64,000 bases of DNA from a virus: IMG/VR virus record IMGVR_UViG_3300019888_000002, positions 1 to 64,000 of that record; one strand, 5' to 3'. A program made the position numbers and the translations under genes. The notes beneath the pieces are model-generated. The model was given only the letters and a program-made list of their open reading frames with translations, was not told where the DNA came from and ran no database searches. Positions 28,866-42,526 of this stretch are shown in pieces (positions within the stretch are counted from its first letter, which is position 1; every line of letters starts with the position of its first letter).

Positions 28866-29864
28866 TCAAGATTTGCGCAATGCAATCAGGCCGCGCGGAT
28901 TTAGGATAGCCATACCTACCAATTCGTCCATCACCCAGCCCTTGTGGAACTGCTCCACCTGGTTGTTCTCTTCGACGTCCAGGCTGTACATCACCGGGAA
29001 CACGCCGAGGAACTCCGGTGCGGGCGCGAGGTACACCGTCCCCTTCGGCACGATGATCGACTTGCCGATCTGGAACTCACCGAACTGCACGATGCGCTCA
29101 CCCGCGACCACACTGTCCTTGAACGCCCAACCGGTGGTGTTGATATCCCACCGGTAGAAGTCGCGGAACTCCGACGGATGGCAGAGGAGTCGGCTCGAGT
29201 CCAACTGCCGGGTGTCGGTGTAGCTCACGGCCGTGTAGAGATCATCGGGCATGAGGTGCGTGCCGGTGATGGTGATCTCGTTGGGCAGGGTGCCGCCGAT
29301 GTTGGCCGTGGAGTCCACCGTGCGGTACTGGACGATGGCCGCCTCGATCAGGGTGACGAGACGTCCGTCCTCCTGCCGCATGATGGCCTGCTTGGTCATG
29401 TCCTGCGTGTACTCCACGATGTTGCTGCGGAGGTAGTACAGGTCTTCCTTCTTGATCTTGGGGAAGCTGGCGATGCGGAAGAGCTGCACCTCCACACGCT
29501 TGCCCTCGAACGGCGTGATCTTGATCTCGCCCTCGTTGCCATGAAGGATGTACGCCTGACCCAGGTCGTCCAGCACGTCGTACTGGATCGGCACGCCGGG
29601 GGTCAAAGCATCTTCCAGCAGCACGTTGCGCAGGATGCCCTGGTAACGAAGCTGAAGCTGGATCGGACCGATCATCGACTGACCGAGCCGGAGGATGCCG
29701 TTCTGCTGATCCGAGACGATCGTGCGTAGCTTCGCCTTCTTCTCGGCTGCGGTCAATGTACGACCACCGAGCTTCTGACGTGCTGCGACAATAGACTTCA
29801 CGTACTCGTCCGATGCCTTGGCGAACCTGCCGAGGCCCGACGCTTCTGCGACTGCGAGTGTCAT
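28866..29864 (-). CDS. Major capsid protein (start revised to ATG 29864, 332 aa)
   Basis: AAAGGAGAG RBS; follows the decoration and protease genes; sequence recalls cluster C capsid proteins (LRYQGILRNVLLED...). Confidence 0.9.
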   Translation of the reverse strand: MTLAVAEASGLGRFAKASDEYVKSIVAARQKLGGRTLTAAEKKAKLRTIVSDQQNGILRLGQSMIGPIQLQLRYQGILRNVLLEDALTPGVPIQYDVLDDLGQAYILHGNEGEIKITPFEGKRVEVQLFRIASFPKIKKEDLYYLRSNIVEYTQDMTKQAIMRQEDGRLVTLIEAAIVQYRTVDSTANIGGTLPNEITITGTHLMPDDLYTAVSYTDTRQLDSSRLLCHPSEFRDFYRWDINTTGWAFKDSVVAGERIVQFGEFQIGKSIIVPKGTVYLAPAPEFLGVFPVMYSLDVEENNQVEQFHKGWVMDELVGMAILNPRGLIALRKS

Positions 29865-29886
29865 TGGCTTCTCTCCTTTCTTTCGA

Positions 29887-30381
29887 TCAGTGGACCAGGA
29901 AGCGGACGACGATCTTGTCCGCACCGACGACGTCGATCAGCTCGAACTGAGCTGTCGCGGCGACGGCCCCGGTGGGGGTGAGTCGGCCCTGAGCATTACC
30001 GGTCAGGTATTTACGGCTGCCGTCGGTCGGCAGCGTCCAATCGCCGGTGGCGTCGAATGCCGGTGCGAGGATCTCGAACGTGGCATCGGGGCCACCGACC
30101 CAGACGGTGAAGTTGCTGTTCCCGGTCGAGCTGATCTCATCGACCCCGAGAACCGGAGCCAGGAAGAGCGCAGCGAGACCGAACGGGACCTGCCCTGTCG
30201 CCGCTGTGAACGGCGTGAAAATCTCTTTGGTCTTCCGGGCCATGACGATGCCGGGAAGGATGTCGAAAGCCTTGTTCCAGGTCGGGTCCAGGAAGCCCGC
30301 GTAGGTCGTGGCCTGATGCTGTGCATACAGGGGACGGATCGTGCGCTTCAAGGCCGGATTGGCCAGTGGTGGACGAAACAT
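29887..30381 (-). CDS. Capsid decoration/cement protein (putative)
   Basis: 164 aa between protease/scaffold and capsid; beta-tulip-like composition. Confidence 0.75.
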   Translation of the reverse strand: MFRPPLANPALKRTIRPLYAQHQATTYAGFLDPTWNKAFDILPGIVMARKTKEIFTPFTAATGQVPFGLAALFLAPVLGVDEISSTGNSNFTVWVGGPDATFEILAPAFDATGDWTLPTDGSRKYLTGNAQGRLTPTGAVAATAQFELIDVVGADKIVVRFLVH

Positions 30382-30429: not shown

Positions 30430-33400
30430 TCAGCGCAGGAACAACAGGGAGTCGTTCTCCACGTCGTTATCCGACGCTGCCGTGCGCGGGGCTGCTCCCA
30501 TGGAGGAGAGACCCTGCGGAATTGCACTCTTGACGCTCGACCCTCGAGTAACACCAGCGGTCTTCGTACGTGCGGGAGTAGCTTCCACGACTCGATCCAA
30601 CAGAGCGATCCTGTCCAGAACGGTGGCGCGGGTTGTCTTCTCGAACTGATCGACCAGGTTCCACTTGTCAGCTTCCTTGTCGATCCCCAGCGCGATGTGC
30701 AGCTCGGCGAGTCGTACCGCCTGTGCCGCGCTGGCCTTGCGGACCGCCCCGGACTTCTTCCCGTCACCGGGAGCCCAGTTCTGATCCGTGCTCAGGTCCG
30801 GCTTGGCAACACCGTCTCCGGCGTTGTTCCCGAAGTCGGTCTTGTCGAACTGAGAATCCTGAGCTTCGTCGTCGGTCGTGCCCGAAGTGGGACGTTCCAC
30901 ATCGATCCGACCGTCCGGCGCGGCGACCTCGAGCTTGTCGTCGGCGGTGCGGCGACGGGTACTCGCCCGCACACGCGACTCCTTCTTCTTGTCGTCGGTG
31001 TCTTTGTCGTCGTCGGTGTCGTCTTTGTCTTTGTCGTCGTCGTCGGAGTCGTCCTTCTTCTTGTCGGCGTTCTCCTTGAAAGAATCCGGCAGCTCACCGG
31101 CCCGGCGACGACGAGCGGACTCCTTGGCCTTGTCCTTCTCGTCGTCCTCGGCCTTGGTCCCGGTGGGTCCGTCGTCATCGGGATCAGTGGCCGCACGGCG
31201 GCGCGATGCCTCGAGAACCTGACCCAACTTCGGATACAGCTCGGTGACCTCGACCCGGGCGAGCTTGGCATAGCTGCGTGCCCATTTACGGATGTCGTTG
31301 GTCGACGCGGCGCGCAGGTTGCCTCCCTCACGGGCCACGTAACGCTGGAACCGAGAGAAATGCATGGCTCGGCGCTGCGCCACCAGGTTGCCCGGGGTGT
31401 TGCTGATCGGATCGTCCTCGTTCGGTGCCACGACCGGCTCCGGAGGAGGGGTCTGAGTGACGAAAGCGTCCTCGGCCACACCTTGATCGTTGCGGCTCTG
31501 GTCCGCTCGGCGGGTTCGCGTGCGTCCCATATCCTTGCCTCCGGTGGTGGATCGACGGTTCATCTGTTCTTGTGCAGAAGGGGTACGGTTTCCAGCGCTC
31601 CGGCCACGATTGCCGGTGAAATGGCTGTTGTCGGCTCCCGCAGCCTCGGCGGCGGCCTTGGCTTCGTCCGGGGAACCAGCAGAGCCCTGCTGGATGTAGA
31701 CCCCGCCGGAATCGTTCACACTCCAGCCGAAACTGCCTCCGTTGTTGGTGACCTTGAGGTACCACCCGGACGGCAGATCCTTGACGATGATGACACCGTC
31801 GAGCGGGTTCTCCTCGTAACGCCAGCCCGACGCCGTCTTCTTGCTGGCGACTCGAGGAAGGTTGTTCCAGACCTGCTCGGCCTCGTGCAGGGTTTCTTCC
31901 AGGCTCGGATTGATGTACTCGTGGCCCTCCACGTCATCGTTGGCGGCGTAGTCCCAAATCCAGTAGCCCCAATAGGTGTTGGCATCGAGTTCGCCGTAGG
32001 ACTTGGCCTCGTAGACGTGGATCGAGTACTGACCACCGGGCGCGTAGTTGTACTGGGTGTTGCCATCCAAGACTTCCTTGACCCACGGGATCGAAGCCGT
32101 CTTGGTGGAGCCATAGTGCTCATCGTCGTCATCGTCGTCGTCATAGTTATAGTGCTCTTCGAGCGAAGCACCTTCGGACTTGCCCATTTCGGCATCGTCG
32201 TAGCCGAGCTGAGTCCAATAGGACATACCAGGGAACCGAGTCAGCCCCAACGCCTTGCCCTGATAACCGAACTCGTAGTCCCTGTAAATCTCGTCCCAGT
32301 TGTCATCACGTCCGTGTCCGAGGTCCCCTGAAAATCCACCGTCACTGTTGTTGAAATCGTCAACCATCTGCTGGGTGACAACGGCCTGCTTACGGTTCTT
32401 GCGTGACTTCTTGGTGGAGTCGGCAGCCTGCTTGCGCTTGGCCGTCATCGACTTGAGCGCCTGCTCGGCGGCGTCCTTGGCCGAAGACGTGTCGGTGGCA
32501 ACACCGTGAGCGTAGGTCGAGCCCGAGTACGGGTCCTCGACGTACCAGGCGATTCCTCCACCGACCTGCTCGACCACCTGACCGGACGGACCGACCGGAG
32601 GTGTGGCGTTGGGATTCCAGGTGGAGAAACCCTTGGTGAAGCCGTCGTCCACGGTGAACCAGGTGACTGCGGCCGTCTTGCGGCGCTTGGCGAACAAAGC
32701 GCCCTGGCCCCCACCGAGAGCCTCGAGTTGCTGCTCAGCCCACATCTTGGCCTCCTCGACCGTGGCGAAAGTTTTCTCTGCGACCGTGCGATCCCATTCG
32801 TTGGGGTAGATCGAGCACAGGTGCGGGGTGGGGTCGTCATCGAACCACTGATCGATCCGGGCGAACGGGGCCTCGGTATCGGTATTGAGATTGGTACCGG
32901 GAAGGGTGCCGATCGACTCGTCGCCGTTGTCACTCCATTCGAGAGAGGCCGTCTTCTTGCTGGCCCACAGGTGAGCGTTGTCCGGGTCGTTCCACCCGCC
33001 AGCGTCCAAGAACGTATCGGTCACATTCTGATCCCATCCTCGGCTCTGACCGAAATCACGCACATGCTGCGGGGAAGCTGTGCCCGGCAGATCGAGCGAG
33101 CGGAGATGCTCACTCAGCTCGTCCCACTTGCCCTCGTTGTGGTACTGCTCGAACGAGTTGGCGATATGCGGGACGACGAGCGGCTTGTGCAGCGCGGTCC
33201 GGCGAGGAACGGTCATAACAGATTCCTTCTTCTTCGTGTCCGACTCGTCGGCCTTGTCATCGTCATCGTCTGTGTCGTCGCGGGGGTCTTCGGCTTCGTC
33301 GTCCGACGGGTGTTGCACCTCGAGGTTCTTCTTCAGGTCGGGGTCCCTCAGCTCCGGGGGAGACTCCACGAACTGATGGAACTCGGACTCGTCCTCTTCA

Positions 33401-34290
33401 TCGCGTAACGTATCGACCCGCTCCGGGGATTCGATCTCCCCATATGCCTTCTTGGAGAGGTTGGCTACCCGCCAGTTCGGGTTGGCCATCTCGAAGGTCC
33501 GGCGATGACTCTCGGAGCAGTAGTCGTAGGCGGCATGAGTGCCGGAGGTGTGAACCCACCGGTCGGTGTCGGACTTCTTGGCCCAGCGCTTACAGCCGGG
33601 AAGGTCACAGAGCACCCGGCCGGGCGCGGCACCGACTCGACGGCTGGCGGCGATCACGTTGGAGGTGAGCGCGGTCTCGTCGGCGGGGTCGAACACATAA
33701 CTCAGTTCGAAGAATCCGATGCCCCGGCATTCTTCGTAGACGAGCTTGCCGTCGATCGTCTGCCCCTTGTGATGAAGCACGTGATCGCACATGTCGAACA
33801 TGTCGGTGGCCGTGTTCCCACACACCGAGCAGATTGTCAGTGCAGCAACGCATCCCATGGACACGGCATCGATGCCACCCTCTTCCAGCTCCTTGGCCAG
33901 CTTCGGGTACTTCTTCGCGCTGACTTCCTGGATGACCTGGATGTACTTGTCGGTGCCGTTCTCCACATACCGAGAACCGATCACCCGGCCACGTGCCTTG
34001 CTGGCGTCGTCGTTGGCATGGTTCACGAACAACGGCTTGCCGAGGAAGGTCTTGTACGCGGCTTTGAGTTCCGAGGACGGGAAGCCGTCGAAGTTCTGGT
34101 TGATCCGCGCCGAAATTGCCCTCGTGACGGTGTAGATATGACCCTCGCGCGGGACGAAGCCGTCGACCAAAGCGGAGTCAGGGTAGCTCTGCCAGGTGGC
34201 GATCAGATCACGAGCGGCCTCGATCGAGGACGCAGCGTGCTTGATACGACCTCGAACGCTGTTGGCCTTCTTCATCGTGTCGACGCTCAA
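30430..34290 (-). CDS. Prohead protease/scaffold polyprotein, 1286 aa, with inserted modules
   Basis: N-terminal protease-like domain (FVNH...GRV...SMG...CSVCGN...FFELSYVFDPAD), modular middle, acidic/basic linker, helical scaffold-like C-terminus. Confidence 0.8.
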   Translation of the reverse strand: MSVDTMKKANSVRGRIKHAASSIEAARDLIATWQSYPDSALVDGFVPREGHIYTVTRAISARINQNFDGFPSSELKAAYKTFLGKPLFVNHANDDASKARGRVIGSRYVENGTDKYIQVIQEVSAKKYPKLAKELEEGGIDAVSMGCVAALTICSVCGNTATDMFDMCDHVLHHKGQTIDGKLVYEECRGIGFFELSYVFDPADETALTSNVIAASRRVGAAPGRVLCDLPGCKRWAKKSDTDRWVHTSGTHAAYDYCSESHRRTFEMANPNWRVANLSKKAYGEIESPERVDTLRDEEDESEFHQFVESPPELRDPDLKKNLEVQHPSDDEAEDPRDDTDDDDDKADESDTKKKESVMTVPRRTALHKPLVVPHIANSFEQYHNEGKWDELSEHLRSLDLPGTASPQHVRDFGQSRGWDQNVTDTFLDAGGWNDPDNAHLWASKKTASLEWSDNGDESIGTLPGTNLNTDTEAPFARIDQWFDDDPTPHLCSIYPNEWDRTVAEKTFATVEEAKMWAEQQLEALGGGQGALFAKRRKTAAVTWFTVDDGFTKGFSTWNPNATPPVGPSGQVVEQVGGGIAWYVEDPYSGSTYAHGVATDTSSAKDAAEQALKSMTAKRKQAADSTKKSRKNRKQAVVTQQMVDDFNNSDGGFSGDLGHGRDDNWDEIYRDYEFGYQGKALGLTRFPGMSYWTQLGYDDAEMGKSEGASLEEHYNYDDDDDDDEHYGSTKTASIPWVKEVLDGNTQYNYAPGGQYSIHVYEAKSYGELDANTYWGYWIWDYAANDDVEGHEYINPSLEETLHEAEQVWNNLPRVASKKTASGWRYEENPLDGVIIVKDLPSGWYLKVTNNGGSFGWSVNDSGGVYIQQGSAGSPDEAKAAAEAAGADNSHFTGNRGRSAGNRTPSAQEQMNRRSTTGGKDMGRTRTRRADQSRNDQGVAEDAFVTQTPPPEPVVAPNEDDPISNTPGNLVAQRRAMHFSRFQRYVAREGGNLRAASTNDIRKWARSYAKLARVEVTELYPKLGQVLEASRRRAATDPDDDGPTGTKAEDDEKDKAKESARRRRAGELPDSFKENADKKKDDSDDDDKDKDDTDDDKDTDDKKKESRVRASTRRRTADDKLEVAAPDGRIDVERPTSGTTDDEAQDSQFDKTDFGNNAGDGVAKPDLSTDQNWAPGDGKKSGAVRKASAAQAVRLAELHIALGIDKEADKWNLVDQFEKTTRATVLDRIALLDRVVEATPARTKTAGVTRGSSVKSAIPQGLSSMGAAPRTAASDNDVENDSLLFLR

Positions 34291-34350: not shown

Positions 34351-36189
34351 TCACAGGAGATAGTGCGTGCCCTCGAGGCTCAACTCTTTGGGGTCCAACG
34401 GAGCCCCGTCGGCCGATGCCTCATTGATCAGTGCCTCCTGCTCGGAGAAGGTGTAATTGCGACCGGCCACCTTGGGCACTCCACCCATCAGATAGGCCAA
34501 CGGGTCCCCCTGATCGCTCACAGCGGCTTCACGAGTATCCACAGCGGAGAACATGGCCAGCGCGGGATCGTCGGCCTCCACCGGGGCCGAGCTGGACCCC
34601 GTGGACCCGGCCAGCGGGTCCATGTTGCCGAACGCCTGAATCGAATCCAGGGATGCCTCCCGGAAATCGTGATCCTCGGAGGCCGCCATCACCGGATTGA
34701 TCCCCGGCACGTTCACCCGTTCCATGCGAGAGCGTTCGTGCCGCTCGACATAGGACTCGCTGGTGTCGATGTCCGGTGCGTCGACCGCGCCGGAACCCTG
34801 GAAAGGCTCATGATTCTCGGGTTCGTAGAGCCCGCCGCAGGCTTGCACCTCGATCGCCGCCGTCAGGTTGTCGGCGTTGTACCCGCGTGCGCGTAAGACC
34901 TGCACGATCCGGCTCATCTCCCGATTGCGCTCCTCGTTGTGCTGCGGCCGGTTGTTCTCGGCACCGAGCGCACGGAGACGTTCCAGCAGCTGCTGATCCT
35001 CGGGATCGATCACCCGTTGGATGTCGATGATGGCGGCCATGATGCCGATGGAGCTGCTCACTCCGATCAAACCGTGCTCGGACCGAAGGTCTTCGTGATG
35101 CAGGTGGCCCCCGGCGTCCGGGATGTCGTTGTCATCGAAATGCAGCGAACCCGGCTCGTGTGTGAGGTACCCCGGTGCGGGCTCGTAGCCCCTCCGTCCG
35201 GCCGTGTTCTGCATGTCGGCATTCGGGTCCTGGTCCTGCGGTTGACCCATGTCGCCCTCGGCATCGGCGGCGGGAACGGGCTCACTGCGGCCCTCACCGT
35301 CGGCCTCGACACTGCGAGAGGCATACCAGGCCGGGGTCTTGTCCTTCTTCTGATGCTGACTCCGCAGCTCGAGATAGGCAGCATAGGCATGGCTGCACAA
35401 CCGGCCGACGAAGGTGAACTTACGTTTGAACGCCCACTTGCCCCATTCACAGGTGCAGTCCCACTCCGAGATCGAACTGTCCCCCGCCATCGCGCCGGAA
35501 CGGACCACGATCGTCTCGTACACCCCGTGGTCCCCCATGACATAGGCGTAGATCGACTGCGGAGTGGCCCCGATGACCTCCACCTGACCGTCGTTACGGA
35601 TACGCACGCCCTTGGCGCGTACGTCCTTCCACGCTGCGGTGCGGATATCGGCATCGGCGGCGAGAAGATTCAGGTAATTGGCGGTGTGCTCATCGATCTC
35701 GTGACCGTCACCGGCATGATGAGCGAACTGGAGGTCCTGAGCGAGCCGGACCGGGTTGTGACGCAACCGGGAGATGATCGAGTCCTTGTCGAACTCCTCC
35801 GGCACGGCAGCGAACCGGGCATCCCGGCTGCCGTAGGTCTCCTCGGTCGACGCCTCGGCGAACAGGTGCCCGGCCGGTGCGGGCTCGGCGGCGTACGGGC
35901 GTTCCTCGAAGGTCAACGAGTCGGACGGGCGCAACCGCTTGTCCGGGTCGATTCTCATGTCTCCGAGCGGCTGCTGATAGACCTCCGAAGGCCATTGCGG
36001 GCGAGGATCGTAGGGCAACGTGGTGGTGTTGCTCCGGTTCACCTCCGGAGGGTTCTCATCGAACTGGAGCAGGGCGGCATCGATCCAGATCTCGAAGCCC
36101 TCACCTGCGACCTTGTGGGTCGTACGACCGTGGACGGTCTGTGTTTCCACGACCTCCCCGAGGCCGTAGGAAGTGTGCACCTTAGACAT
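34351..36189 (-). CDS. Head-region protein with SWIM-type zinc finger, 612 aa
   Basis: WDCTC...LCSH (CxC-xn-CxH); between portal and protease. Confidence 0.75.
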   Translation of the reverse strand: MSKVHTSYGLGEVVETQTVHGRTTHKVAGEGFEIWIDAALLQFDENPPEVNRSNTTTLPYDPRPQWPSEVYQQPLGDMRIDPDKRLRPSDSLTFEERPYAAEPAPAGHLFAEASTEETYGSRDARFAAVPEEFDKDSIISRLRHNPVRLAQDLQFAHHAGDGHEIDEHTANYLNLLAADADIRTAAWKDVRAKGVRIRNDGQVEVIGATPQSIYAYVMGDHGVYETIVVRSGAMAGDSSISEWDCTCEWGKWAFKRKFTFVGRLCSHAYAAYLELRSQHQKKDKTPAWYASRSVEADGEGRSEPVPAADAEGDMGQPQDQDPNADMQNTAGRRGYEPAPGYLTHEPGSLHFDDNDIPDAGGHLHHEDLRSEHGLIGVSSSIGIMAAIIDIQRVIDPEDQQLLERLRALGAENNRPQHNEERNREMSRIVQVLRARGYNADNLTAAIEVQACGGLYEPENHEPFQGSGAVDAPDIDTSESYVERHERSRMERVNVPGINPVMAASEDHDFREASLDSIQAFGNMDPLAGSTGSSSAPVEADDPALAMFSAVDTREAAVSDQGDPLAYLMGGVPKVAGRNYTFSEQEALINEASADGAPLDPKELSLEGTHYLL

Positions 36190-36733
36190 GCGAAGCCTCC
36201 TGCTCGACTATCTCTTCCTGTCCGAAAGATGCAGGGAATACACCATCCGGGATCAATCGAAGGACCGATTGAGCTGTCGTCGGCACGCATTCGATCAAAG
36301 TGAGCCACAACCCCTGGTTGATGACTCGCATCGGTTCGGAGTGTTCGACCGACCCCACCAGATGCGTCACGATGTGCCGGGGCGACATGGTGACGATGAA
36401 GGACACCATCACGAAATCCGGAAGAACCCGCTCGGCTTCGGCCCAGCTGGCCCCTCGGGAGCGTAGCGACTCGAAGAGGGCCACGGCCTGGGCTGCCAAC
36501 TCGTTGTGACGGTCCTGCTGGCTCGAGGGGACATGAAAAGCGATGTCCCGGGTGTGGGTGTCCACTCTGCCGACGGTCTTGGAGACCAATTGGTCCCCGA
36601 ACTCCGATTGAACGAAGCGTGGGGCCACGATCTGCCAGGTGATCGAGCCATGAGCCAACCCGAGATCGTCACCGACGGAGTCTCGGACGATGTTGACCTC
36701 GATCTCTTCGGTGAAAACCGGTCTCATACCCAT
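36182..36733 (-). CDS. Hypothetical protein, ~181 aa
   Basis: Overlaps both neighbours as in a coupled operon. Confidence 0.6.
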   Translation of the reverse strand: MGMRPVFTEEIEVNIVRDSVGDDLGLAHGSITWQIVAPRFVQSEFGDQLVSKTVGRVDTHTRDIAFHVPSSQQDRHNELAAQAVALFESLRSRGASWAEAERVLPDFVMVSFIVTMSPRHIVTHLVGSVEHSEPMRVINQGLWLTLIECVPTTAQSVLRLIPDGVFPASFGQEEIVEQEASHV

Positions 36734-39204
36734 AACGGCTGGATTCCGTGGACCAATTCGTACTGCTCGAGCATTCCTTCGAGATCTTCGTGCTGACTGA
36801 CGATGCTGGCGGCCGTGCGCCGACGCACTTCGTCGGAGGCGAAATGATATTCCTCGATATCGGGCCAGTCGGTGTGGAAATCCAGTCCGTTTTGATTGAG
36901 CGTGGAGTAGAAGTGCTCACTGGAGACCAGATCGGCGACCGTGGGCATCTTGTAGGCCATCCGGTCGATGGCTTCCCGGACACTCTGGTCGTCGGCGCGC
37001 AACACGGCTCCCACCGAGGACGGAGCCTGACCCAATCGATTGACCACCACCGGTACCGGCTCTTCTCCGTCGACCGAGGCGGCCTTGGGCATGGTCTTGC
37101 GCTGCTCGTCGGATTCGGCCGGACGAGACCGGTTGCGCGGGCTCGGTGGTTTGGTCTTGGTGTCTTCCGTACCGCTCGGCGGGTTCGCGTCCTTGGCGTC
37201 GGAGATCGAGGTCTCGATCCCGTTGTCCATGTCGTTGGGTCCGGCGCTGTCGGCACCCTCGGCACCGGCTGCTCCAGCCGTTCCTGGCATCTCACCGGTT
37301 TCCTCGAAGTGATCCTTGGTCGACTCGGCCATTTCGGCGTCGGTCTTGGCCTTGTCGTTGTTGATTCCGGCCTGTTCGGCCATCTTCTCTTCACGCTCGA
37401 GCTGCGACTGAGCTGCCAAGAACTTGGCCAGCTCGGGCGGCATCGGCAGCCCCTGAGCCTTGATCAGCTCGGCGGCCTTCTTCATGGCCTGAGCCTGAGC
37501 GACCAGCTTGTCCACCATCTCCTCGGACTGCTTCTCCAGCTCCGACTCGAACTCGATCGGCACGTTGACGGCCAGACTGCGATCCGAGATCGGGACCCCG
37601 GCGTTCTTGAGCATCTGAAGGAACGACCGCTCCTGTGCTTCGTCGCGCAGATTGAGTGACTGGAACTTGATGTCGGGAATCAACAGCTTGGGCACCTTGC
37701 GGATGGTCTCCTCGCCGGTCCGGGGATCGGTCTCCACGATCTCCCGATAGACCGGCTCTCGATTGCCGCCCCGAGTGTCGTAGTCGTAATGGCCTTGGGC
37801 CTCGGCGATGACCAGGCACCGCTTCCGAACGTGGCGTTTCACGGCGTTCTGGTAGCTCAGCATCATCTGCGTGACGAACTCGCGGTTGAGCGCGGTCGAC
37901 GCATAGTTCTGGGTGCCGGTGCCACCGGAGATCAGAGCCTCGCCGATGCCCCATGCCTGCATCAGCTTCTTGTCGATCCGGCTGTAATCGGTGTCGAATC
38001 GGGGAACGGCTTCCCGGCCGAACACACTCTTGATGTCGAGCCCCATGTGATGCACCATCAGGCGGAAATCGGCGGCCAGGGCGCTTTGAAGGTTCTCCCG
38101 GGTTTCGTCCAGTTCGGCAGGGGTGGGAATCCACGGTCCGGCGTCGTCACCGAGGTTGGCGATGCCGAGAGTGGCCAGGATCAGCGGGCTGTAGAGCCGA
38201 TCCGCCACGGCGTCCTGTGCGGCGTTGAGCGATTCTTCGAGCATCAGGGTCTTGAAGGAACGCATCATGTGAGGTGTCCCCCGGGTGTCCCACGGCTGCA
38301 CCTTGTTGACGATCCGAGAGATCAGTGCGTCGGAGATGTCGATACCGTCGTCCTGGGCGGCGGCGGCGATGAACTCGGGGTACTCGTTGACCAGGGTCTG
38401 GTAGTCGTTCTGTCGCTGACGGCGTTCGCTGGCCGAAAGGTTGGCGTCGTCCATACTTCCCGAACCGGAGCGCAGGCCCTCGACCATTTCCTTGACCATG
38501 AGCTGCACTCGTTCGACCGGCTGATCGGTGTCGCTGTTCCCGAACATCGGTTTGGAGACGTGCAGGTGATCGGGGTCCATGATCTCTTCGGCTGTCCAGA
38601 TGCCGAGGGTCTCGGAGAAATGGCCCAGTGCGTTGATCTCACCGGAGATGAAGTATTCCCGACCCATGTCCTGAAGGAAATTCCCGTAATCCAGGGTGTC
38701 GAAGAACATTTCGTTGTAGAAACGCTCGATCTCCGGATCTTTGTTGGTCAGTTCAAACCCGATCACCGGGAACTTGGAGTAGATGTCGATCAGCAACGGA
38801 ATCAGGTCGTGGGTGCAATAGAACAACCGAGCCCAACGCCTGATCTCGATCAGTTCCTTGGGGTTACGGGTGTCGAACGGGATGCCCTTGTCGATCAGCG
38901 AGGACATCGGTTTGCGGACCTTGGGCAACGCCAGTTGCACGTTGGCCCCGGTGCGGGACATCGCCGCCACTCGTTGACGAGCGGCCCCCATGGACGCGGT
39001 GAGCGTCCGATTGTCCATCGACTCCCGGACCCGCGCTGTCTCCGACATGGCCGAGCCGTCGGAATAGGGCAAGGTGTATCCGGCCTGCCGAAGCTGCTGC
39101 ATGTGGGTGTTGAGGTTGGTGGTCACAAGCCGGGGGTTGGTGGTGGCTCCACCCACACCTGCCGTCCGAGAACCACGGAGGTCTCTCACCGTGAAATCGG
39201 CCAT
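36724..39204 (-). CDS. Portal protein with long acidic C-terminal extension
   Basis: 826 aa; helical portal-like core (RLFYCTHDLIPLLIDIYSKFP...MMRSFKTLMLEESL) upstream of protease and capsid. Confidence 0.85.
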   Translation of the reverse strand: MADFTVRDLRGSRTAGVGGATTNPRLVTTNLNTHMQQLRQAGYTLPYSDGSAMSETARVRESMDNRTLTASMGAARQRVAAMSRTGANVQLALPKVRKPMSSLIDKGIPFDTRNPKELIEIRRWARLFYCTHDLIPLLIDIYSKFPVIGFELTNKDPEIERFYNEMFFDTLDYGNFLQDMGREYFISGEINALGHFSETLGIWTAEEIMDPDHLHVSKPMFGNSDTDQPVERVQLMVKEMVEGLRSGSGSMDDANLSASERRQRQNDYQTLVNEYPEFIAAAAQDDGIDISDALISRIVNKVQPWDTRGTPHMMRSFKTLMLEESLNAAQDAVADRLYSPLILATLGIANLGDDAGPWIPTPAELDETRENLQSALAADFRLMVHHMGLDIKSVFGREAVPRFDTDYSRIDKKLMQAWGIGEALISGGTGTQNYASTALNREFVTQMMLSYQNAVKRHVRKRCLVIAEAQGHYDYDTRGGNREPVYREIVETDPRTGEETIRKVPKLLIPDIKFQSLNLRDEAQERSFLQMLKNAGVPISDRSLAVNVPIEFESELEKQSEEMVDKLVAQAQAMKKAAELIKAQGLPMPPELAKFLAAQSQLEREEKMAEQAGINNDKAKTDAEMAESTKDHFEETGEMPGTAGAAGAEGADSAGPNDMDNGIETSISDAKDANPPSGTEDTKTKPPSPRNRSRPAESDEQRKTMPKAASVDGEEPVPVVVNRLGQAPSSVGAVLRADDQSVREAIDRMAYKMPTVADLVSSEHFYSTLNQNGLDFHTDWPDIEEYHFASDEVRRRTAASIVSQHEDLEGMLEQYELVHGIQPLWV

Positions 39205-39581: not shown

Positions 39582-40304
39582 TCATGTTCGAGAGGCCAGC
39601 ACGGCGTCGGCGCGTACCGGTACCTCACGGGCGATCATCTTGGTTCCACTGGCCGACTGCACCGTGTGAATATTCCACTGCTTCCCACACTCACAGACAC
39701 CGAAGCTCGGTGCTGCGATCTTGACTCCACAAGTGCAGTCGAACGAGTCGATACCGGACTGAGCGATATATCCGGACTGATGGTGATCCCAATCCCATCC
39801 GGCGATACGCGCGATGTTGCCGCTCTGTGGCTGAATCGGCATCAGCGCGGTCTTCTCTCTCGAACCGGTCTTGTGGCTCTTCTTCCCCGGACCCCACTTC
39901 TCCAACGCCTTCTTGTGCTGGGAAGAGCCGGTGCCGAACATGGTCTCGGCATTCCTGATCTTCTCCTCGTTGGAGAACTCACCGGGAGCCGCTGTGCGGG
40001 CTGCCCGACGAGCGGACATGAACTGGCGCTGGAACTCGAGCCGAGTCTCCTCGACTTCGTCCTGACTCTTGAGCGCACCCTCGGCCATCAGCCAGTCCTC
40101 GAAGGACTGCACCCCATGATCGGTGTAATAGGCCCCACCGACCTCGTTGAACCACTGCCGGTAGTCCTCGATGTTCCCCTCGGCGATCAACTCTTTCTCA
40201 CCGGGTCCCAGTGCTTCCCAGTTCTCGGTGGCCTGCCGGGGCACCGATGCCTCGAGATACTGAAGCGTGTGGTGCCCTTCCTCTTCGGTCGCCTCACCGA
40301 TCAA
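39582..40304 (-). CDS. Modular head-region protein with C-terminal Zn ribbon
   Basis: FDCTCG...CECGKQWN; internal RTAA and KTAL motifs; start uncertain. Confidence 0.65.
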   Translation of the reverse strand: MIGEATEEEGHHTLQYLEASVPRQATENWEALGPGEKELIAEGNIEDYRQWFNEVGGAYYTDHGVQSFEDWLMAEGALKSQDEVEETRLEFQRQFMSARRAARTAAPGEFSNEEKIRNAETMFGTGSSQHKKALEKWGPGKKSHKTGSREKTALMPIQPQSGNIARIAGWDWDHHQSGYIAQSGIDSFDCTCGVKIAAPSFGVCECGKQWNIHTVQSASGTKMIAREVPVRADAVLASRT

Positions 40305-40336: not shown

Positions 40337-42526
40337 CTATGCGCGACGGGCCTTGCCGAAAGACTCTGCCCTCACAGCCAGCTCGGGGAAGTCCTTACTG
40401 GCCTGTTGGCGCATGGACTCGTACCCCATGCTCCGGCGCAATGCCCGCAGAACATCGTTGACGGCATCGGCGAGGAACTGCGAGGTGCCCGAGACGATCG
40501 TGGAGCCCGCCTGCCGCAGGTACCAGTCCCAACCGTTGTCCCCGGAATTGATGCCCATGCTGCGAAGCTGGTTGTCCGGGCTGCTGTACCAATGCTCGGT
40601 GTGATAACCCTCGGCCACACCCTCGGAGTACTGCCACCCGTTGTCGATGAGCCAGCGGTCGACGTTGTTCGGGTCCGGCACCACCCAGGCATAGTCCTCG
40701 GCCGTCTTGCGCAGCTCGGGGAAGTCCTTCATGGCCTGCCGCAATTCCGGGAAGTCCCGCGCTGCCACCGTCGGGTCGAGCGGCTCAGCGTCGTCCTTCA
40801 TCTCTTGCTCGTTGGTACCCGAGAGCGGAGGGTCGACCTTCTTCGGCGGGTTGTCGGCCTGTTTGCGGCGAGACTGCTTCCAAACCGGATGTCCGGCCCA
40901 CGATTCGAAGTCGAGCGGATGACTGCCTCCGGCTTCCTGAAGGCCACCGAGCGAAAGAGTGCGCTTGGCGATCCATGAGGCATACCCTTCGGCCACATCC
41001 GAATCCACCCCCTGGTCGATAGCCCAGTCGAAAGCGTGCTGGAAGGCGAACTGCGACTCCTCCCACAGCTCGGGAGACACATCGTCCTTGCTGGTGCCGC
41101 CTTCTTCCCCGATTCCGAAGACAGCCAGCTTCTTCCGGGCTGCGGCACGCTCCGAAGTGTTGTCGGACTTGCACTGCTCGAGCAGTTCGGCGACCTCTTC
41201 CCAGCTCAGTCCACCGGGCTGGATGGCTTCCTTGCGTTTTCCGTGGAAATGCGGGTTGGAACCGACCGGTTCCCCGGTGCTGGGCACAATGCGCGGGCTG
41301 CTGAGCACCTGCTCGGCGAAAGCTCGAGCCTCGGCGGCGGTGTTGAACTCACGACCCTCGGAGTCACCCGAAAGGGGTTCCACATAAACCGTGAACCCTT
41401 CACCAGTGGACCCGATCTCATAACTACCCCGGTCGTCCGAATGAGATTCGGCCGTCTTGCGAGCCGCCGTACGCGGGTTGCGGTAACCGTTCTGCCACGC
41501 CATCCGAGTGGCCGAATCCAGGGCCGGAAGTAAAACGGACTCATCGGTCTCGGAGGCATATGCCTGAGCCAAGAGTGCCAAATCGACCCGATCGATCACG
41601 TTCTGAGTCAGGATCGTGCCTCGGCGTGACTCCCACGATCCGCCGTTCAGTTCGGGCGCAGGGGCGAGGCCGGAAGGATCACCGGCCGTCTTGCGACTCG
41701 AATACAGCTCCGGGAAATCCTTGCGCAGCTGCTCCTCGGTACCCCGGTCGTAACCCTTGGTGAAATCCTCCATGATGGACTGATTCGCAGGGTCACCCAC
41801 CGGTCGGCTCTTCATGCCGTCGTTGACCACGTTGTTGAGCGAGGGAGCCCGCATATCGCCCCGGCCGTGCGCGGCATAACCTTCGTCTTCGTAGATGCTG
41901 GCTCGCCGGTCGCTGTCCTTGGCGAAGTCGGCACGCTCGACCTCGGCGACATCGCGTTCCCGCTCCCACAGGTACCCGTCGAAGTCGTCCTTGGGGATCA
42001 GTGGTCCCCCGTCGATCGGCCCGGTGCTGTCAGCCTGCTTACGACGAGCAGTCAAAGACCAAAGCTTGTCGACCACCCTTTGTAGATCGACAGTCTCGAT
42101 GACCTGCTTGGTCTTGTCGCTGCCCTTCTCGTAAGCCTGGAGAAGAAGGTTGGCAGTGTTGATATCGACCAAGAGCCCGTCGATGTTCTGGTGACCCTGA
42201 GTCTCGACAATGGAACGAATCGTGTCGATCCGACTGGACTGCTTCTCAACACTTCTTGCGAAGTCCGGCTTCTGAGAGGCCACCACCCGGCGCATCACCC
42301 CCGGCTTGGGCATGAGGAACTCGGCAACCCTCTTCATCATGTCGGACTTGACCAGCGCTATCCGGTCGGTGAAATCGTCCTTGTCCTTGGCGGCACCGAG
42401 GAAGGTCCCGAAGTCCTCGGACACGGCGTGAATCGCTCGTTCCAGAACCTGGTTCGCATCTCGTGCGGCGATCCGCTGTTCGCCCTCGTTTGTGTCGAGA
42501 GCATCGAAAACTCCGAAAACACTCAT
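40337..42526 (-). CDS. Modular polyprotein-like head-region protein, 729 aa
   Basis: Six R-K-[T/Q/E]-A motifs and four DFPEL repeats separating small domains. Confidence 0.75.
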   Translation of the reverse strand: MSVFGVFDALDTNEGEQRIAARDANQVLERAIHAVSEDFGTFLGAAKDKDDFTDRIALVKSDMMKRVAEFLMPKPGVMRRVVASQKPDFARSVEKQSSRIDTIRSIVETQGHQNIDGLLVDINTANLLLQAYEKGSDKTKQVIETVDLQRVVDKLWSLTARRKQADSTGPIDGGPLIPKDDFDGYLWERERDVAEVERADFAKDSDRRASIYEDEGYAAHGRGDMRAPSLNNVVNDGMKSRPVGDPANQSIMEDFTKGYDRGTEEQLRKDFPELYSSRKTAGDPSGLAPAPELNGGSWESRRGTILTQNVIDRVDLALLAQAYASETDESVLLPALDSATRMAWQNGYRNPRTAARKTAESHSDDRGSYEIGSTGEGFTVYVEPLSGDSEGREFNTAAEARAFAEQVLSSPRIVPSTGEPVGSNPHFHGKRKEAIQPGGLSWEEVAELLEQCKSDNTSERAAARKKLAVFGIGEEGGTSKDDVSPELWEESQFAFQHAFDWAIDQGVDSDVAEGYASWIAKRTLSLGGLQEAGGSHPLDFESWAGHPVWKQSRRKQADNPPKKVDPPLSGTNEQEMKDDAEPLDPTVAARDFPELRQAMKDFPELRKTAEDYAWVVPDPNNVDRWLIDNGWQYSEGVAEGYHTEHWYSSPDNQLRSMGINSGDNGWDWYLRQAGSTIVSGTSQFLADAVNDVLRALRRSMGYESMRQQASKDFPELAVRAESFGKARRA

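Follow-up and report, generated by a model that had tools for sequence, protein, structure and literature searches.

The herpesvirus UL26/UL26.5 genes specify a protease, an Ala-ending release site, a linker and a scaffold that is also made from an internal start, and an Ala-ending maturation site lies a few dozen residues before the capsid-binding C terminus (PMC4498786). The head proteases of phages T4, phiKZ and SPN3US cut many head proteins at a short motif, among them small internal proteins that are packaged with the DNA, and their own C-terminal part is removed; the mapped cuts of the T4, phiKZ, 201phi2-1 and SPN3US enzymes all follow Glu (PMC5694885, PMC10052503). We examined a gene located at 30430..34290, on the minus strand, of a 64,000-nucleotide stretch (positions 1 to 64,000 of the IMG/VR record IMGVR_UViG_3300019888_000002), referred to below as the window. 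The source is a large soil phage of actinobacteria; its 131,157-bp sequence is a whole phage genome, of which the window is the first 64 kb. The best explanation is that this is a head-maturation protease/scaffold gene of a Bxz1/E3/Finch-type actinobacterial myophage with a UL26/UL26.5-like layout, whose linker has been expanded by six modules that would be released by the protease, and we consider this explanation probable. Two variable zones, with borders set by conserved landmarks, were named V1 (from the protease core to [YFW]GExEAP) and V2 (from [YFW]GExEAP to a conserved ...SRNDQG...). The features of the gene are given below from the N terminus of its product in amino acids (aa); a slash marks a candidate cut.

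30430..34290, minus strand: whole open reading frame (ORF; P0001), 1286 aa from TTG, a member of PHROG 2774 (phrog_2774, E 9e-190)
33634..34224, minus strand: prohead protease domain (aa ~23-219) with the T4 gp21/herpes assemblin fold, identified by PHROG and by an AlphaFold 2 (AF2) structural match
34018..34020, minus strand: His91 (in FVNH), candidate catalytic His, on T4 gp21 His85 by hhalign
33859..33861, minus strand: Ser144 (in VSMG), candidate catalytic Ser, on T4 gp21 Ser140 by hhalign
33490..33609, minus strand: small Cys/His knuckle in V1 (aa 228-267)
33445..33456, minus strand: site S1, SKKA/YGEIESP, candidate release site behind the protease
33193..33444, minus strand: acidic linker (aa 283-366; net charge of -19 over aa 284-366), conserved in relatives and ending in PRRTA (aa 362-366)
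32947..33192, minus strand: module A (aa 367-448), predicted to be helical with low confidence, ending in SKKTA (aa 444-448)
32671..32946, minus strand: module B (aa 449-540), ending in RRKTA (aa 536-540)
32425..32670, minus strand: module C (aa 541-622), predicted as five strands and then a helix (pLDDT 60-70), ending in KRKQA (aa 618-622)
32383..32424, minus strand: 14-aa basic spacer between two KQA motifs, ending in NRKQA (aa 632-636)
32095..32382, minus strand: module D (aa 637-732), very acidic, ending in STKTA (aa 728-732)
31831..32094, minus strand: module E (aa 733-820), Trp/Tyr-rich, ending in SKKTA (aa 816-820)
31621..31830, minus strand: module F (aa 821-890), a distant relative of C
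31528..31545, minus strand: internal GGAGG, 7 nt and ATG (Met921), candidate nested scaffold start
30433..31530, minus strand: conserved, scaffold-like C-terminal part (aa 921-1286), alignable across the family
30943..30957, minus strand: site S2, RRRTA/DDKLEVAAPDGR (RRRTA at aa 1112-1116)
30556..30570, minus strand: site S3, RTKTA/GVTRGSS (RTKTA at aa 1241-1245), 41 aa from the C terminus, at a position conserved in the family tails
30478..30492, minus strand: site S4, APRTA/A (APRTA at aa 1267-1271), 15 aa from the C terminus, candidate maturation site before ...NDSLLFLR

As in herpesvirus pUL26/pUL26.5 (MEROPS S21), the product begins with a Ser/His protease of the same fold. At the sequence level, a candidate release site with Ala at P1 lies directly behind the protease. 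A linker comes next, and then a C-terminal scaffold-like part for which an in-frame internal start probably serves as well; a further Ala site, a candidate for maturation, lies near the C-terminal tail, in the manner of the herpesvirus release and maturation (R and M) sites. The differences are equally clear: the linker is about 640 aa long with six modules, compared with about 21 aa in pseudorabies virus (PrV); P3 is basic, whereas it is hydrophobic in herpesviruses; there are many sites instead of two; the motif also occurs in other head proteins; the host is bacterial; and the protease is structurally nearer to T4 gp21 (Z 8.2) than to the herpesvirus proteases (Z 5-6). A gp21-fold head protease, which in the window would likewise process several head proteins at a short motif, is shared with T4 (gp21, with IPI-III and Alt), phiKZ (gp175) and SPN3US (gp245) (PMC5694885, PMC10052503). 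There, cargo proteins have genes of their own and bear N-terminal propeptides or targeting peptides, whereas in the window the cargo would be fused in cis between protease and scaffold, with a motif that ends in Ala. An earlier note on this DNA, made from its letters alone, had likened the modules to T4 IPI. This analogy holds for function only: there is no shared N-terminal peptide before the modules, as the T4 capsid-targeting scheme would have it, the motif being C-terminal to each, and T4-type mapped cuts follow Glu, not Ala.

Two further systems were compared. In polyvalent proteins (Iyer et al. 2017, PMC5512222), several unrelated domains share one late or head-block polypeptide with a peptidase proposed to cut them, and an assemblin-like peptidase is among the listed types. 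However, that peptidase is C-terminal there, no repeated junction motif or scaffold fusion is described, and the modules in the window, which are very small, have no match among the enzyme families in that study. In the TM4 tape measure, a protein essential for virion assembly, the mt3 motif is an embedded passenger that interacts with the host (Piuri and Hatfull 2006, PMC1796659), and the same mt3 is found in Bxz1-type orthologs of the gene studied here. The carrier in TM4 is, in contrast, a tape measure without protease release, and the copy in the window lacks mt3. Three elements were known before: processing of head proteins at a short code, along with small proteins that are packaged; protease-scaffold genes that contain a nested start; and multidomain late proteins with a peptidase. 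What is new is the placement of candidate cargo modules in cis between an N-terminal gp21-fold protease and a scaffold, a basic-x-Ala junction code common to several head polyproteins, and the cassette-like turnover of the modules.

The N terminus had been called protease-like in the earlier note, and three lines of evidence confirmed this. PHROG 18299 ("head maturation protease") matched aa 67-211 with an E value of 1.5e-20; Pfam and NCBIfam offered no curated model for the domain. An AF2 model of aa 6-295 (predicted local distance difference test [pLDDT] score of 74) had T4 gp21 as its top structural match (5jbl_A; Z 8.2; root mean square deviation of 3.1 over 128 aa), followed at Z 5-6 by the proteases of varicella-zoster virus, PrV, cytomegalovirus, Kaposi's sarcoma-associated herpesvirus, Epstein-Barr virus and herpes simplex virus. 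Foldseek also placed gp21 and the herpesvirus proteases at the top, but with weak E values of 0.02 to 0.3. When the family profile was aligned with T4 gp21, His91 and Ser144 fell on the catalytic positions listed above, and both residues were invariant in two alignments of relatives (n = 38 and n = 34). The third residue of the triad is Asp in T4-type and His in herpesvirus-type enzymes. Candidates for both were found in the string DMCDH, 22 to 26 residues past the Ser, namely, Asp166 (nearly invariant) and His170 (invariant). Cys154, Cys157, Cys168 and His170 (aa 148-172; window 33775-33849, minus strand) are invariant in the family. They may form a zinc site beside the catalytic Ser; alternatively, His170 may complete the triad.

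We next consider the motif. The eight copies quoted in the earlier note, SKKTA through RTKTA, were all found at the places given for them, the six from SKKTA 444 to SKKTA 816 spanning window positions 31831-32955; two more, PRRTA at the end of the linker and APRTA at S4, had not been quoted. The ORF contains 10 copies of [KR][TQ]A, compared with 1.65 expected, and none of 20,000 protein shuffles reached 10. With a further basic residue required, 8 copies were present (0.39 expected), a number again not reached in any of 20,000 shuffles, and the reversed motif occurred once. Across the genome (135 ORFs, 131,157 bp), the background was 1.07 copies per 1000 aa. Two genes stood out strongly, the ORF under study (p 1.9e-6) and a 729-aa head gene (8 copies, p 1.7e-6), and the third outlier was a 240-aa gene (3 copies, p 2e-3). 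Across the genome, the motif piles up in these three head genes only. The description of the gene in the earlier note, as a chain of modules separated by motifs, holds. An extended consensus, [AS]-[SR]-[RK]-[KR]-[TQ]-A followed by a small residue and often by a Trp three places on, is identical in the window and in relatives.

The conservation of individual sites was then followed in a family of at least 343 relatives (clusters at 90% identity; E<=1e-10), which comprises Bxz1, E3, Finch and Gordonia myophages as well as metagenomic sequences and ranges from 836 to 1551 aa among the 120 relatives listed. At S1, [YFW]GExEAP directly follows an Ala in about 90% of the listed variants (98 relatives) and a Gly or Ser in the others, and a basic or hydrophobic residue usually stands two or three places before this position. 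At S2, [KR][KR]xA precedes the landmark D-x-K-L-[DE]-V-A-A-P-D-G-R in nearly all of the 57 relatives that have it. R-x-A is dense in the family tails (about 75 of the 89 distinct tails inspected); in nearly all of these ~75 tails, one copy lies 10 to 15 aa from the end, before ...ND.S.LF, and a further one, which lies some 40 residues before the end, precedes G..[ST]RG. The constant features at alignable sites are the Ala at P1 and a basic P3, while Thr and Gln predominate at P2 in this phage. The motif is enriched in head genes alone, is retained at alignable positions, flanks mobile modules and is absent from stand-alone copies of them; it thus behaves like a processing site, a view that the comparison of sequences supports. 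Cleavage at the motif is, in our estimation, likely.

The modules themselves turn over rapidly. Across the family, V1 ranges from 6 to 769 aa and V2 from 129 to 677 aa; in the ORF under study, V1 is short and V2, at 650 aa, is the second longest. The capsid protein, in contrast, is 77 to 89% identical to that of the window across 120 relatives. An invariant middle region, which the earlier note had named as evidence against its proposal, is thus far from what was found; the comparison of module number and identity among relatives that it had called for revealed a hypervariable one. The V1 length differences are partly due to inteins in some orthologs: P0083 and P0118 have an intein in or just after the protease domain (Hint and intein-splicing matches, with LAGLIDADG in P0083). 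P0019 and P0021 differ by one Trp-rich module of ~75 aa lying exactly between RRTA/ and RREA/. RedWattleHog gp8, gp9 and gp12 are chains of similar small modules split by RRTA, KRTA, RKQA and the like, and in Finch gp17 the same position is filled by a long Pro-rich acidic linker without modules.

In the window, V2 contains the acidic linker and six modules of 8.6 to 10.9 kDa, with isoelectric points (pI) of 4.1 to 5.7 and a composition rich in Trp and Tyr. The modules are tagged at the C terminus with [KR][TQ]A, in most cases directly after one more basic residue, as listed above for A to E. Among the 120 listed relatives, module A was found only in P0003, module C was common to P0003, P0004, P0005 and P0007, and B, D, E and F were found in none. 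A search of 1.84 billion representatives also detected module C in a different head polyprotein of 461 aa (P0122), where it is again flanked by motifs, RRRTA/A and HKQA/N; the N terminus of this protein resembles that of the 729-aa head protein of the window. Homologs of module D are stand-alone proteins of 88 to 89 aa (P0123, E 1.8e-12, and P0124) or form the C termini of P0125 and P0126, none of them with the motif. Module F has a stand-alone 82-aa homolog (P0128, E 4e-5), also without the motif, and weak matches in RedWattleHog gp8 and in a 136,319-bp IMG/VR contig (L009). For B and E, no homolog was found in the 120 listed relatives, 50,697 phage records or 1.84 billion representatives. 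A tblastn search with aa 371-897 gave zero matches in the 50,697 phage records, and no loci encoding the stand-alone D and F homologs were found in IMG/VR or metagenome contigs.

According to the earlier note, several modules share an architecture of Trp-rich strands plus a helix. Its helix strings (TVEEAKMWAEQ, SSAKDAAEQ, TLHEAEQ and PDEAKAAAE) are present, and C and F are homologous (BLASTP E 3e-4 in a six-sequence database; module-C profile against F, E 1e-3); for the other modules, strands plus a helix appear only in a low-confidence prediction. One fold for all modules is not supported, since relatedness was detectable between C and F only. A search of ESM Atlas with module C gave no usable match, and NCBIfam returned nothing. 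Overall, the comparisons support the view that the middle of a protease-linker-scaffold-type gene has been expanded by discrete modules.

The C-terminal third is conserved, in keeping with its description in the earlier note as scaffold-like; the scaffold role as such is deduced from position, conservation and layout. The candidate nested start at Met921 recurs in relatives. A Shine-Dalgarno (SD)-like sequence lies 6 to 9 nt before the equivalent ATG in all six annotated relatives inspected (including Finch, Rizal, E3, Skog and RedWattleHog) and before that in all 18 distinct IMG/VR loci, the two counts not being fully independent because the annotated genomes partly overlap these loci. An SD-like string of some kind also precedes about one in four of the remaining in-frame ATGs. 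Over the SD, different residues are encoded (TGGKD, TRSSA, GKGTD and KGTAN), which argues for selection on the nucleotides. No sigma-70-like promoter was found inside the ORF on the coding strand. The conserved internal SD and ATG suggest a nested scaffold gene, as in herpesvirus UL26.5 or lambda Nu3. We regard the scaffold role and the nested start as probable, with somewhat less assurance than cleavage at the motif.

The match to the herpesvirus UL26/UL26.5 layout led us to read the gene as a UL26-like protease-scaffold gene in which the linker serves as a loading dock. The following sequence of events may be proposed. The C-terminal scaffold part, which would also be made alone from Met921, would carry the full-length protein into the procapsid. 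The protease would then cut after the Ala of each motif, freeing itself and six modules of about 9 to 11 kDa, and cuts located 15 and 41 residues before the end would detach the scaffold from its C-terminal tail. Cleavage of the 729-aa and 240-aa head polyproteins would proceed likewise. The interval between protease and scaffold would act as the dock, into which small genes may be inserted and from which they may be lost or exchanged.

Whether the modules would also be retained in the head and delivered into the host is a more tentative matter, and we hold it to be possible but rather less likely than otherwise. Passengers found in relatives bear on it. Bxz1-type orthologs carry the mt3 peptidoglycan-hydrolase motif in V1 (L002, which is Rizal gp94; P0023 aa 438-541), with matches to aa 797-889 of the TM4 tape measure (E 3e-12) and to PDB entry 9flh (E 1.2e-8). 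They also carry the L5 gp82 domain (PF25735), which is a separate gene in phage L5. The mt3 family includes a Bxz1 protein, and mt3 helps TM4 to infect stationary-phase cells (PMC1796659). The presence of mt3 in the orthologs suggests that passengers can matter at infection rather than assembly. It probably also explains two of the names that orthologs bear in their records, "tape measure" (a note on Rizal gp94) and "LysM-like endolysin" (Skog); the others are "hypothetical protein" and "prohead protease" (E3 gp77).

Several observations weigh against the reading of the gene as a self-processing, cargo-carrying protease-scaffold. A literature search on Bxz1-type and E3-type phages brought up neither virion proteomics nor N-terminal data, and the Myrna capsid paper makes no mention of a protease or cleavage. 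The E3 record calls gp70, gp78, gp87 and gp89 structural and gp77 merely a prohead protease. Mapped T4-type proteases cut after Glu (PMC5694885), so that Ala at P1 would be a departure, and the GExEAP beside S1, in which E and P are invariant and G is nearly so, could itself be a Glu-type site. P2 is less constrained outside the window (T, V, S, Q, L or R), which makes "R-x-A" by itself weak evidence for a given site. No motif is conserved in the capsid protein among relatives. Its EKKA/KL in the window was tried as a substrate site and dropped because the Ala position is not conserved: relatives have A, Q, I, V, S, G or L there. Pfam searches at E<=5 returned nothing meaningful for any of the modules, for the linker, for the C-terminal part or for either of the two neighboring polyproteins. 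An AlphaFold model of aa 367-900 (5 sequences) had a mean pLDDT of 38, with only C at 60 to 70, and is too poor for a fold search. Finally, the modules are acidic (pI 4.1 to 5.7), so nothing suggests that they bind packaged DNA.

This acidity also fits the best of the alternatives, according to which the motifs are cut but the modules are disposable filler of the scaffold core, which would help to occupy or order the interior of the procapsid and be expelled before or during DNA packaging like most of T4 gp22 and the propeptide fragments, playing no part in the next host. As a rule, fragments of propeptides are expected to exit the head in maturation (PMC10052503), the modules belong to no recognizable enzymatic or binding family, and in Finch gp17 the Pro-rich acidic linker occupies their position. 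Filler, however, would not need to consist of discrete folded domains that also exist as stand-alone genes, nor to be exchanged between different head genes, and it leaves the mt3 and L5 gp82 domains of the Bxz1-type orthologs unexplained. Moreover, the capsid is nearly invariant while the modules turn over, indicating that they are not tuned to capsid geometry. We consider this alternative unlikely, though it deserves more weight than those that follow.

It is more improbable that the motifs are conserved interdomain linkers or patches binding DNA, portal or capsid, in a protein that stays one large internal head protein or assembly factor. Basic patches could indeed bind DNA or acidic scaffold regions, and the variation of P2 and P1' across the family would be tolerated by such a role. 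Yet ordinary linkers would not keep an invariant Ala and a basic P3 at several sites in distant relatives, one of them 10 to 15 aa from the C terminus; the stand-alone copies of the same modules lack the motif; and the motif is found next to a protease domain with intact His and Ser, in a layout of sites that mirrors the herpesvirus R and M sites. Least probable is that the protease keeps a T4-like Glu specificity and releases itself at GExE/AP, the Ala motifs being recognized by something else or not at all: the characterized gp21-type proteases of T4, phiKZ, 201phi2-1 and SPN3US all cut after Glu and GExEAP is as conserved as described above, but no Glu-containing motif recurs at the module borders, every one of which has [KR][TQ]A, and GExE, present once per protein, cannot explain module release.

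The reading as a self-processing protease-scaffold may be extended to a general cargo cassette site of Bxz1/E3/Finch-type actinophages, an extension that we advance as speculative and give a little less credit than delivery of the modules in this phage. Small genes captured at this site and in the adjoining head polyproteins would gain a [KR][KR][TQ]A junction, be carried in cis into the procapsid, be released by a gp21-fold protease switched to herpesvirus-like Ala specificity, and be kept and injected along with the DNA as premade early effectors (e.g., anti-defense proteins here and a cell wall hydrolase in Bxz1). If the motif is a cut site, it would provide a large and frequently isolated phage group, which includes more than 200 cluster C mycobacteriophages, with its first head-protease specificity code, and a gp21-fold enzyme with a herpesvirus-like Ala specificity would add a further link between phage and herpesvirus maturation. 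It would also mean that arbitrary small proteins can be loaded into a capsid in a simple and evolvable way, by placement between protease and scaffold with a junction tag, a route that could serve the engineering of cargo-carrying mycobacteriophages. Dozens of orphan small domains would become candidate injected proteins, relevant to actinobacterial defense systems. The question is directly testable on phages in the SEA-PHAGES collection.

The gene lies between those for the portal and the major capsid protein, all on the minus strand, in a head-gene block that holds eight other listed genes:

40337..42526, minus strand: 729-aa motif-rich head polyprotein with 8 motifs
39582..40304, minus strand: 240-aa head protein with 3 motifs, adjoining the 729-aa gene
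head block, minus strand: 121-aa protein, listed between the 240-aa gene and the portal
36724-39204, minus strand: portal (phrog_2833)
head block, minus strand: 183-aa protein, listed between the portal and the 612-aa gene
34351-36189, minus strand: 612-aa protein containing a SWIM-like zinc finger (match to PF04434 at E 0.003, which is below the Pfam cut-off)
29887-30381, minus strand: cement protein (PF23968)
28866-29924, minus strand: major capsid protein (phrog_2522)

The closest annotated relatives are actinobacterial myophages, namely, Rhodococcus phages Finch and E3, Gordonia phages RedWattleHog, Stormageddon and Skog, and more than 200 Bxz1-type cluster C mycobacteriophages. The motifs near the N terminus of the portal (aa 13 and aa 39) have no counterpart in Rizal or E3. 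In the 729-aa protein, several of the motifs are accompanied by DFPEL repeats, and a further strands-plus-helix module is present; a tblastn search with this protein (E<=1e-4) gave no match in the loci of seven relatives. The 240-aa protein has a Cys-rich module at its C terminus, which is bounded by motifs in three phages, with different neighbors. In the 612-aa protein, a conserved C-terminal tail is preceded by [KR]-x-A/GRxY[ST] in four phages; the orthologs have RTA/GRxYS near the C terminus, and the version in the window is KVA/GRNYT. RedWattleHog gp12 (974 aa) is an ortholog of this protein with extra Trp-rich modules inserted.

Two start codons call for comment. The database copy of the protease-scaffold protein (P0002) starts at an ATG five codons downstream of the TTG. 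A purine-rich SD-like stretch (window 34276-34290, minus strand) lies 6 nt before the TTG (34288-34290) and ~20 nt before the ATG of P0002; given the 6-nt spacing, the true start may be the TTG. The capsid ORF as listed (28866-29924, minus strand) begins at a GTG 20 codons too early, and the relatives and the database copy (332 aa) use the ATG at 29862-29864.

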